A stretch of 64,000 bases of DNA from Blastocatellia bacterium (GTDB lineage: Bacteria; Acidobacteriota; Blastocatellia; UBA7656): NCBI GenBank assembly GCA_963765495.1, contig CAVXWP010000001.1, positions 1,056,001 to 1,120,000 of the forward strand, in the 5' to 3' direction. This document shows, piece after piece, positions 18,152 through 20,253 of this stretch. Both the position numbers and the translations under genes were made by a program. The notes beneath the pieces were generated by a model. That model saw only the letters and a program-made list of their open reading frames with translations. It had not been told where the DNA came from and did not search any database. Each line of letters opens with the position of its first letter. Position 1 is the first letter of the stretch.

Positions 18152-18234
18152 TGAATAAGAGAGAAGTTGGAACGGTTAAGACGCGAGTAATGTAATACGC
18201 CCGGCAGGACTCGAACCTGCGACCTACGGATTAG

Positions 18235-18831
18235 CTTCCAGCATCACGTTTCCGTGACCTCCCTCATCGGGGTTGCTGGCTGGACCATTTCTTCGCCATT
18301 TCAGGCGGCGGGCGTATGGCCTCTACGCATCCCTTCATCCAAGGTTTGCTCGGAGTTGTCGTAGGAGGTGTACTCCCTTACGAGATTCTCCGAAATAGCC
18401 CGCTCCAGTTCTGCGGTTTTACCGAGGATTTGCAGTCTTTGAGAGAATTTGCCTCTGCACCGGGCAGAACAACAGGTAAAGGCAGTGCCTTTTTGCAAAA
18501 AGGTTTGACCTTTTCTTCTCTCGAAGATCAGACCACATTCCGGGCATTTCAAAACAACCATTTTTCGTCCGTGTTCGAAGTGATGTTTGCGAACGTGTTC
18601 GCCGTTGTTCATCACCTCAAGGTTTTCAATCCGGTTGTCTTTCTTATCCCGGTTTTTATGGTGCACAACTTCATCGGGATTGAGAAGCCTGCCAAGGTGA
18701 TTCTCGACTACGACTCTATGTTCCAGCACATAGCCATTAGCAGAAGCCTGCGGATGTCCAGAAACAAGAGCGTAGTTGTAATCTCCCTTGTGGATGATCT
18801 TCTCAATCTTCCACACAGAACGCTCCTATTG
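18235..18831 (-). ncRNA. Group I self-splicing intron (597 nt) in the tRNA-Arg anticodon
   Basis: 5' exon ends in U and the intron ends in G. P1 U.G pair, P3 GCGGGC/GCCCGC, P4 UCGGAG/CUCCGA, P7 GGCCAU/AUGGUC, P8 CGCC/GGCG, P9 CCAGCA/UGCUGG with UCACG-GAAA-CGUGA. Confidence 0.88.
18301..18816 (-). CDS. Intron-encoded HNH homing endonuclease with C-terminal Zn-finger
   Basis: [13 protein letters not shown]...[18 protein letters not shown]; CPEC and CCSARC; AGGAG 6 nt before GTG. Confidence 0.88.
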
Positions 18832-18875
18832 AAGTCCGTTGCTCTATCCATCTGAGCTACGGGCGCAAAATAAAA

Positions 18876-18965
<90 letters not shown>

Positions 18966-19125: not shown

Positions 19126-20253
19126 ATGAGTAGATCACGAGAAGGCTCCACTAGAACGATCAATGGCATTCTCTATGCTCGGGTTCGTTGGACTGACGCT
19201 GAGGGTAAGGCAAAGGAGAGGTTGAAACGAGCCAAGAATAAGACTCACGCCAAACAACTCATAAAAGAGATGCAGCGAGAGATTGATGATTACGGCACCA
19301 AGTCGCTTGAGTACGATTCTATCACTTTCGATGATCTTGCTGACTTCTATGTACAGTATCATCTCAAACCTGCCGAATACGTAGGGGGCAAAAAAGTCTC
19401 TGGCCTGCGGTCTCTTCATACTGCCAATTATGCCCTGCCCGTCTTTCGAGAATACTTTGGTACGAAGCGGTTGCGGTCAATCACTTATGGCCACCTTGCT
19501 CGCTTCCGAGATCACCGGCTCAAGACTCCAACAATGCATAACAAACCGCGCTCGGTGACGACTGTAACTCGAGAGCTTGAAGTTCTCCGCAATATGCTTA
19601 ATGTTGCCCATAGGGAAGGATGGCTACTCCGAAACCCCTTCACATCTGGCCTCCCTCTGATCTTGAAATCTCACGAGAAGATGAGAGAGCGAATTCTAAC
19701 CCCCGAAGAAGAAGAACGCCTGCTGTCAGTATGCACCGGCAAGAGAGTACACCTCCGAGCACTCATCATCTGTGCTCTTGATACTGGGATGCGACGGGGG
19801 GAGATTCTAACGCTGACCTGGGAGGATATAGATTTCAACAACAGGCTTATTAATGTGAAAGCCTTCAATACGAATACGCAACGTGAGAGATGTCTCGCAT
19901 TGACCCCCAGGCTGGAGAGCGAATTCTTGGCCCTCTATGAGAAGTCCTCAAAGCAACCGGATGAGCGTGTCTTTGGTATCAAGGATAATGTCAAGCGGTC
20001 TTTCAACACGGCTCGGAGACACGCAGGCATTCCAGAGGTGCGATTTCACGATCTCCGACATACGGCAGCAACAAGGTTGGTTCAGAAAGACATTCCTCTG
20101 CCGTTGGTAGGGCGCATACTTGGGCACACGCAGGCGAATACTACGATGCGCTATGTGAATGCCAACATCGAAACGGCACGCAGAGCGGCGGAGGCGTTAG
20201 CTGGATTCAGAGATGATAGAGAAAAAGAGAACGAAGCAACGCTAATCAATTGA
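19126..20253 (+). CDS. Tyrosine recombinase/integrase
   Basis: TGMRRGE, FHDLRHT, ILGH and TMRY catalytic motifs; N-terminal arm-binding-like region. Confidence 0.95.
   Translation: MSRSREGSTRTINGILYARVRWTDAEGKAKERLKRAKNKTHAKQLIKEMQREIDDYGTKSLEYDSITFDDLADFYVQYHLKPAEYVGGKKVSGLRSLHTANYALPVFREYFGTKRLRSITYGHLARFRDHRLKTPTMHNKPRSVTTVTRELEVLRNMLNVAHREGWLLRNPFTSGLPLILKSHEKMRERILTPEEEERLLSVCTGKRVHLRALIICALDTGMRRGEILTLTWEDIDFNNRLINVKAFNTNTQRERCLALTPRLESEFLALYEKSSKQPDERVFGIKDNVKRSFNTARRHAGIPEVRFHDLRHTAATRLVQKDIPLPLVGRILGHTQANTTMRYVNANIETARRAAEALAGFRDDREKENEATLIN

Follow-up and report, generated by a model that had tools for sequence, protein, structure and literature searches.

A split tRNA-Arg(UCU) gene with a coding intron

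We analysed a stretch of 64,000 nucleotides (nt) from the genome of a Blastocatellia bacterium (contig CAVXWP010000001.1, positions 1,056,001 to 1,120,000), hereafter called the window and numbered from its first letter. On its minus strand lies a transfer RNA (tRNA) gene, tRNA-Arg(UCU), which is split by an intron at the boundary of positions 34 and 35 of the anticodon loop; the predicted ribozyme core of this intron overlaps an open reading frame (ORF) for an HNH-type homing endonuclease (Table 1). The location of the ORF inside an intron is a homing-endonuclease setting, and intron-less alleles, with the uninterrupted loop CUUCUAA, occur in three relatives (L017, L019 and L020), where they would be the presumed substrate of cleavage. 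A tRNA-Pro(UGG) gene precedes the split gene, as it also does in several relatives, and the two are probably co-transcribed. Default runs of ARAGORN and Rfam detected only tRNA-Pro(UGG) here and missed the split tRNA-Arg(UCU); with standard tRNA and Rfam scans the genome would therefore be annotated as having no tRNA-Arg(UCU).

The genome (7.3 Mb in 17 contigs, 97.9% complete) has 49 tRNA genes that ARAGORN finds uninterrupted, and none of them is an Arg(UCU), Asn(GUU) or Leu(UAA) gene. The split gene is the only tRNA-Arg(UCU) gene that ARAGORN found with introns allowed. Since this gene is the sole one of its kind and AGA codons are in use (7.5 per 1000 codons genome-wide, and 10.3% of the arginine codons in long ORFs), it must yield a working tRNA.

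Table 1. Coordinates of the features of the split tRNA-Arg(UCU) locus, in window numbering; helices P3 to P9 are those of the structure model of alignment A2 (see text).
Feature	Coordinates	Strand	Evidence or remark
tRNA-Arg(UCU), split	18867-18195	minus	ARAGORN, introns allowed: tRNA-Arg(tct) c[1074195,1074867] i(37,597)
5' exon of tRNA-Arg(UCU), ends ...ACGGACUU (U34)	18832..18867	minus	ARAGORN; uninterrupted relatives
Predicted group I-type intron, 597 nt, C18831 to terminal G18235	18235..18831	minus	P3-P9 covariation; 45/46 consensus pairs
AGGAG, putative internal guide and Shine-Dalgarno-like site	18823..18827	minus	Predicted fold, relatives, genome Shine-Dalgarno peak
P2 5' strand GUUCUGUG, holds GUG start (18816-18814)	18814..18821	minus	8 contiguous pairs with 18415-18408, -12.0 kcal/mol
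HNH_3 homing-endonuclease ORF, 171 codons and stop	18301..18816	minus	PF13392; in P2 loop, extends into core
P2 3' strand CGCAGAAC, codons 134-137 (T-A-E-L)	18408..18415	minus	P2 pairing; T134 invariant in protein alignment
P3 5' strand (partner 18313-18308)	18398..18403	minus	5/6 pairs changed on both sides; 99.3% of cells paired
P4-P5-P5a-P4' domain, codes I141...E156	18350..18393	minus	A2 helices 2-4
P4, P5 and P5a pairings	18393-18388 / 18355-18350; 18383-18381 / 18361-18359; 18377-18375 / 18365-18363	minus	A2
P6 hairpin, 18349-18343 / 18333-18327	18327..18349	minus	A2 helix 5
P7 5' strand, inside 'R'-like element GCGUAGAGGCCAUACGC	18316..18321	minus	Pseudoknot with 18288-18283; 97.9% of cells paired
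P8 hairpin 18307-18304 / 18297-18294, loop UGAAAU	18294..18307	minus	100% of cells paired; 3/4 pairs changed on both sides
P7 3' strand, inside 'S'-like element AAGAAAUGGUCC, outside ORF	18283..18288	minus	A2
P9, P9a, P9b (GAAA loop), then terminal G18235	18238..18279	minus	A2 helices 8-10
3' exon of tRNA-Arg(UCU), begins CUAAUCCGU	18195..18234	minus	ARAGORN, intron alignment
tRNA-Pro(UGG)	18876..18952	minus	Default ARAGORN and Rfam; 8 nt upstream of split tRNA-Arg(UCU)

A predicted group I core conserved among relatives

Relatives of the intron were collected by a DNA search of 60 relatives, which gave 20 loci (10 parsed as split tRNA-Arg genes and three as uninterrupted ones; six, L007, L009, L012, L013, L014 and L016, could not be parsed and were dropped), and by protein-guided scans of genome and metagenome collections, which gave 160 loci. 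The same core follows on the ORF strand in 18 of these 160 HNH loci, and in all 18 the exon sequence CUAA comes next. Alignment A2 joins the window sequence to five ORF-less and 18 HNH-bearing introns (24 sequences), and its structure model comprises 46 pairs in 10 helices, including the P3/P7 pseudoknot, part of it having been derived by RNAalifold on A2 itself. In this alignment 95.3% of 1101 cells are paired, against 35.2-43.8% when the partners are slid by 1-3 columns, and 30 of the 46 pairs show changes on both sides. The covariation score was reached by none of 500 shuffles, a figure not to be read as a probability, because the sequences are related and RNAalifold supplied part of the structure from A2 itself; more weight attaches to the control with slid partners and to the number of pairs changed on both sides. 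The window sequence itself makes 45 of the 46 consensus pairs, and at one pair of P7 it shares with L111 and L115 a switch from U-A to C-G.

The terminal G before the 3' exon is present in all 23 introns with the CUAA exon and also in two introns inserted elsewhere in the loop (L018 and L021, described below). Three blocks, GUAGAG, UCCAG and CCGAG, are invariant in A2, and a fourth, AUAUCGG, is variable at a single position, where the window reads AUUUCGG; they resemble the classical P, Q, R and S elements of group I introns. The small core, with P2 present and apparently no P5abc extension, may belong to the tRNA-type subgroup IC3.

On this comparative evidence the insert is very probably a group I-type intron of the self-splicing kind, with an ORF that overlaps it in the way described below. 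One result goes the other way: the Rfam model RF00028 gave no match in the 751-nt region at E<=10, in 14 relatives at E<=1, or genome-wide at this intron. As a control, the genome's own tRNA-Leu(UAA) intron goes undetected by the same model, which gives the tRNA-Asn intron 35.2 bits against a cut-off of 50, and because these control introns were missed or fell below the cut-off we do not count the blank against group I identity. The blank is also what would speak for a dead tRNA-Arg(UCU) gene, or for one processed in some other way. We find either very hard to credit, given the model's insensitivity to the other tRNA introns of the genome, the covariation of P3-P9 and the pseudoknot, to which the window conforms at nearly every pair, the U.G pair that the 5' splice site can form, a terminal G in every aligned intron, and a nearly complete genome with no other tRNA-Arg(UCU).

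The endonuclease frame runs through the predicted catalytic core

The ORF occupies the loop of P2 and its product matches PF13392 (44.1 bits against a gathering cut-off of 24.8, residues 33-76) and 16 PHROG families at E<=0.01, 15 of which are annotated as HNH endonucleases. We found 912 homologues of the protein, and in an alignment of 32 sequences H52, H53, N61, N65, H74, H78, C91, C94, C116 and C120 are invariant. Among PDB sequences a profile search returned no related nuclease, its sole match being a zinc-finger protein (E = 3.7e-4). AlphaFold, run with the 32-sequence alignment, gave a mean predicted local distance difference test (pLDDT) score of 86, with residues 1-154 ordered, including a helix at 135-142 and a strand at 145-150, and residues 155-171 scoring below 50 and predicted to be disordered.

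Broken copies exist among the relatives: premature stops or frameshifts precede the core in L023, L114 and L126, and interruptions are found in L120 and L123 too. A search for RNA sequencing runs gave four, each with only 0.04 of the sampled words. Such copies are what one would expect if the endonuclease gene were an untranslated passenger in decay, whose overlap with the ribozyme has no present function. For the window this seems improbable, because its ORF is intact and of a length typical of the family, its protein conserves every invariant column, the His/Asn and Cys residues included, its structural model is confident, and its start context (see below) is optimal for the genome.

The 3' part of the ORF overlaps the predicted core for 115 nt, from 18415 to 18301, through P2', P3, P4, P5, P5a, P4', P6, J6/7, the 5' strand of P7, P3' and the 5' strand of P8. 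The original prediction, made from the letters of the window, had let the last ~34 codons (ERAISENL...HTPAA, exactly 34) overlap P3 to P7 and the frame stop in the P8 loop. Both statements held: P3 starts at 18403, within the GAG codon of 'ERAIS', the 5' strand of P7 lies at 18321-18316, and the ORF has no private stop, its UGA (18303-18301) opening the P8 loop UGAAAU. The extent had to be enlarged, as P2' (codons 134-137) also falls in the ORF, which makes the overlap 115 nt and not about 102. The protein motifs AIS(E/G)N, DN(S/P/T)E(Q/E)T and RR(G/D)(H/Y)TP are what the best-conserved RNA blocks encode. Among 16 ORFs the overlap has a third-codon-position identity of 0.64 and the ORF body one of 0.46, and amino-acid identity is alike in the two (0.51-0.57 against 0.55); third positions more conserved at similar amino-acid identity are a signature of an added RNA constraint. 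The predicted overlap of the HNH family is kept across diverged relatives, at about 55-79% amino-acid identity.

Comparison of ORF ends in homologous introns, which the original prediction had proposed as a check, showed that read-through into the core recurs and that the 16 intact intron-borne ORFs stop at four positions: in P6 (4), at the UAG of the R block (6), at the UGA of L8 (2, the window and L102) and at the UAG of the S block (4). This is the pattern of core creep, described by Edgell, Chalamcharla and Belfort (2011), in which variable ORF ends fall at the next in-frame stop in the core (PMC3073962, cited here and below from its accessible parts); besides the four stop positions, LAGLIDADG and PD-(D/E)XK ORFs that occupy the P6 loop (L6) in sister introns run to the R-element UAG as well. 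At the same time, the AIS.N(L/I) motif is kept in three (L109, L117, L122) of four free-standing homologues that have no core behind them, L118 being the one without it, and all four end some 10-13 codons past the place of this motif. From these ends and the structural model we conclude that codons 134 to about 154 would be truly dual-purpose and encode a folded part of the enzyme, which is not a mere read-through tail because it is predicted to be ordered and its AIS.N motif is kept in most free-standing homologues, and that residues 155-171 would be a passive read-through tail, as fits core creep.

The guide as a probable Shine-Dalgarno site and the start codon in P2

The AGGAG at 18827-18823 is followed by a 6-nt spacer (18822-18817) and a GTG start codon (18816-18814), a placement that the original prediction had given correctly for the minus strand. 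An in-frame TAG (18828-18826) just upstream makes this GTG the first possible start, and the codon after it encodes W2, which all 32 aligned homologues share, so the start is where it had been proposed and not elsewhere. The same UAG is a candidate for P10 as well as the stop that closes the frame upstream of the ORF.

In the predicted local fold P1 pairs GGAG (18826-18823) with C18831, the first intron base, and with exon U18832, U18833 and C18834, so that U18832 lies opposite G18825 as the splice-site wobble; this agrees with the earlier proposal that AGGAG pairs with the 5' exon. P1 cannot co-vary within the family because the anticodon loop fixes the end of the exon. In L018 and L021, where the insertion lies two bases further on and the exon ends in UCU, the guide is GGA and not GAG. 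The sequence AGGAGCC is found in seven of the eight related introns that have no HNH gene, the eighth having GGGAGCC, and the motif is therefore part of the ribozyme and older than the endonuclease gene.

The genome uses Shine-Dalgarno sites, its 16S tail being GGAUCACCUCCUUUCU. Upstream of 4054 long ORFs, Shine-Dalgarno tetramers peak at -12/-11 with 449-453 counts over a background of about 37; in the window AGGA starts at -11 and GGAG at -10, and AGGAG spans -11 to -7, matching the peak. The endonuclease gene seems to lack a private ribosome-binding site and to rely on the AGGAG of the guide. The layout is not a chance one: among 19 HNH-bearing introns, the window counted, nine clearly have their ORF start in P2, 5-6 nt downstream of (A/U)GGAG (the window, L023, L105, L108, L111, L114, L115, L116 and L119), and two more (L106 and L112) have two possible starts and were not counted as clear, nor were L103 and L107, in which the core is present and the guide and 5' exon were not located. 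In six sister introns (L022, L102, L104, L110, L113 and L126) the ORF starts in the P1 loop and the guide is translated as ...G-A...; two of these six have an AGGAG-like site of their own.

A point absent from the original prediction is that the start codon itself is predicted to be paired, supplying three of the eight pairs of P2. Across the 19 introns, cognate P2 helices average 7.9 contiguous base pairs (bp) against 1.4 for non-cognate strand combinations, and the pairing co-varies, with AUG facing CAU and GUG facing CAC or CGC. W2 and T134 are both invariant because their codons face each other in P2. The loop of P2 is here the ORF body of about 390 nt, whereas in ORF-less relatives P2 is a local hairpin. 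A second, local hairpin is predicted at 18816-18785 (minus strand), pairing UGUGGA with UCCACA and covering the start codon in nascent RNA; we set it aside, as its 3' arm lies in codons that vary among homologues (I-I-H-K here, I-V-S-K in most).

A proposed conflict of translation and splicing

The explanation that we favour, and consider quite probable, is that at both of its ends the HNH gene has become fused with the ribozyme, so that folding and translation of the RNA are in conflict. In the folded precursor tRNA (pre-tRNA) the Shine-Dalgarno site would lie in P1 and the start codon in P2, and a correctly folding pre-tRNA would be a poor messenger RNA (mRNA) because both are paired. An initiating ribosome would have to open P2 first and the entire 5' half of the core next, and the same molecule could not splice while being translated. 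Translation would be most likely on nascent transcripts, before P2' exists, or on the excised intron, in which the guide is free. Residues 134-154 of the enzyme made in this way would be part of its fold, and the last 17 a disordered tail left by core creep.

Whether this conflict amounts to a regulatory switch, in which translation and splicing are exclusive, we judge to be evenly balanced; the original prediction had further supposed that the ribosome-binding site would be freed only after exon release or misfolding and that endonuclease expression could be coupled to tRNA maturation. In favour of a switch are the position of the start codon within an 8-bp P2 of -12 kcal/mol, a Shine-Dalgarno spacing that is the one preferred by the genome, and the reported effect of ribosomes on the T4 td intron (see below). 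Several observations weigh against it. P1 alone has 4 bp and -2.0 kcal/mol, compared with -8.4 for the duplex of the Shine-Dalgarno and anti-Shine-Dalgarno sequences; about 400 nt separate P2' from the start codon in the order of transcription, an interval in which ribosomes could initiate co-transcriptionally; and sequestration of the Shine-Dalgarno site in P1 is no requirement of the family, because six sister introns translate through the guide. The weak P1, the late P2' and the guide-translating relatives argue that any such block would be leaky. A caveat on the folded part of the overlap is that the alignment given to AlphaFold includes the RNA-constrained tail, which may inflate the confidence for residues 135-150.

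Could the overlap then be passive, with no switch at all? The ORF would have crept into the core, AGGAG would be merely usable as a Shine-Dalgarno site, ribosomes would load on nascent RNA, and the ribozyme would fold after the last of them has passed. We regard this as possible, without leaning towards it. It would account for the scatter of stop positions among the intact ORFs, as core creep predicts (PMC3073962), for the disorder predicted at the end of the protein, for an AGGAG already present in introns without the HNH gene, for the low stability of P1 and for the relatives with starts in the P1 loop that translate through the guide. It accounts less well for a start codon held within P2 by compensatory changes in the nine clear cases, or for the order predicted at residues 134-154, with AIS.N retained where no core is present. 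Moreover, a ribosome that crosses 115 nt of core must exclude the folding of that molecule whatever the origin of the overlap.

The codon usage of the ORF is a further observation. AGA makes up 6 of its 15 arginine codons, with a tandem pair at codons 100-101, against the genome-wide share of 10.3%, and AGA is the codon read by the very tRNA that is interrupted here. This may merely reflect the lower G+C of the ORF, whose body has 45.9% against 53.7% for the genome. We hypothesise of a second loop, in which an AGA-rich ORF readable only by the interrupted tRNA would give enzyme only after earlier transcripts have spliced. The broader picture, of a large and mostly metagenomic family of HNH genes co-encoded with the ribozyme, in which the helix at 135-142 and the strand at 145-150 would share their nucleotides with P2', P3, P4 and P5, each transcript would serve as either mRNA or ribozyme and an AGA feedback loop would act besides, we consider rather unlikely as a whole.

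Other endonucleases, free-standing homologues and genomic surroundings

The same tRNA-Arg(UCU) intron also occurs in relatives of the same family with another endonuclease ORF, located in L6. In L004 (564-1007, plus strand) this is a LAGLIDADG ORF (PF14528/PF00961), and L006 resembles it; in L008 (1628-2041, minus strand) it is a PD-(D/E)XK ORF (PF11645, E = 1.4e-38), which L005 resembles. The ORFs of L004 and L008 terminate on the UAG of the conserved GUAGAG (R) block. One intron family thus carries, in two loops, three enzyme families. Within the same class, L018 (1365-1575, plus strand) and L021 (1531-1830, minus strand) have a homologous tRNA-Arg(UCU) intron after U36 and not after U34. 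The protein of L103 (P0091) is a 282-residue fusion of an N-terminal helix-turn-helix (PF13384, PF02796) with the HNH part, and its ORF reaches the UAG of the S block.

In five metagenome loci (L109, L117, L118, L122 and L124) HNH genes stand alone between tRNA genes and are followed by no ribozyme core; L109 has a truncated tRNA 5' half ahead of the ORF and looks like a decayed intron. Among the five, AIS.N(L/I) is retained despite diverged nucleotides in L109, L117 and L122, and not in L118 or L124.

A search of 300 other genomes of the class (E<=1e-10) gave no full-length homologue of the HNH protein. Partial matches, chiefly to the HNH domain (residues 2-87, 2-74, 13-113 and 18-79), occur in four of them, or 5 of 301 genomes with the host included. 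The absence of a full-length relative in the class, together with the low G+C of the ORF, is consistent with a putative horizontal arrival. A tyrosine-recombinase (phage integrase) gene lies at 19126-20253 on the plus strand of the window (PF00589, E = 6.8e-31), about 170 nt from tRNA-Pro(UGG) and divergent from it, and may mark an element integrated beside the tRNA pair.

Elsewhere in the genome, ARAGORN with introns allowed reports split candidates for Leu(UAA) at C12:68327-68642 (L182) and for Asn(GUU) at C6:42435-43402 (L184), and five more that are possibly false (C1:1269176-1269462, C7:385941-386518, C8:306502-306849, C3:11671-12208 and C3:280543-280968). The candidate intron of tRNA-Leu(UAA) has, by eye, a CUU|...UUGAGC guide and R/S-like blocks; that of the tRNA-Asn on C6, the intron used above as an RF00028 control, is 893 nt long.

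Comparison with known systems and significance

Overlap of ORF and core, hidden ribosome-binding sites and a conflict between translation and splicing are established for group I introns (PMC3073962, PMC3984707, both in their accessible parts), and splicing of the T4 td intron is reported to suffer when ribosomes occupy its core sequence (PMC3073962). The overlap described here is an extreme yet recognisable case of this known gene-within-ribozyme arrangement. I-Ssp6803I, of the tRNA-fMet intron of Synechocystis PCC 6803, is likewise encoded at the 5' end of a group I intron in the anticodon loop of a bacterial tRNA gene; its ORF overlaps P1/P2 by 61 nt, and it is grouped with ORFs that have non-AUG starts or weak ribosome-binding sites (PMC3073962). 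It differs in its enzyme family, PD-(D/E)XK compared with HNH_3 here, in its host tRNA and in the 3' overlap of about 115 nt through P3-P8 found here; the accessible account in PMC3073962 does not mention a guide acting as a Shine-Dalgarno site for it. In the T4 td intron the 3' end of the I-TevI ORF lies in core helices too (20 nt; P6a, P6.0 and P7), and its ribosome-binding site is hidden in RNA structure (PMC3073962, PMC3984707), but by a dedicated hairpin and not by P1, and with an overlap about six times shorter than ours. The LAGLIDADG ORF of the Synechococcus lividus large-subunit ribosomal DNA intron also overlaps extensively (81 nt; P6/P7/P3/P8/P9.0/P9; PMC3073962), whereas it lies in P8 of an intron in an rRNA gene and belongs to another enzyme family; here 115 nt are shared and the start codon lies in a core-adjacent helix.

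The top Foldseek match of the predicted protein is I-HmuI of the Bacillus phage SPO1 (PDB 1U3E), also an HNH enzyme from a group I intron, a weak match that serves only as a lead (E = 0.059, template modelling (TM) score 0.27, 17% identity); the I-HmuI ORF lies in P8 and overlaps by 9 nt (PMC3073962). Also comparable are the ORF-less tRNA-Arg(UCU) introns L003, L010, L011 and L015 of the same family or class, with the same site, the same AGGAGCC guide and a homologous core; they differ in that their P2 has no ORF and forms a local hairpin, about 27 nt long or, in L015, 67 nt. Introns in tRNA-Arg(UCU) have been reported in Beggiatoaceae, in a citation of MacGregor 2013 in the accessible text of PMC4853749, and are likened to ours by host gene only. 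Literature searches, in full text and with subscription papers and supplements beyond reach, found no description of a guide that doubles as a Shine-Dalgarno site, nor of the HNH-bearing tRNA-Arg(UCU) intron family.

The ORF/core overlaps tabulated in the accessible part of PMC3073962 run from 9 to 81 nt, so the 3' overlap of 115 nt exceeds any of them; it takes in both catalytic domains up to P8, and it does so in an essential, single-copy tRNA gene. The conserved overlap is a natural data set in which one sequence stands under constraints of RNA pairing and of protein folding. With the guide serving as a Shine-Dalgarno site, P1 and P2 would form a simple and mutable two-helix switch for the conflict between translation and splicing, in a host gene that is non-coding and where, unlike in phage T4, no upstream ribosomes would complicate it. 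If the dependence of the enzyme on AGA is true, it would be a self-limiting circuit that protects the essential tRNA.

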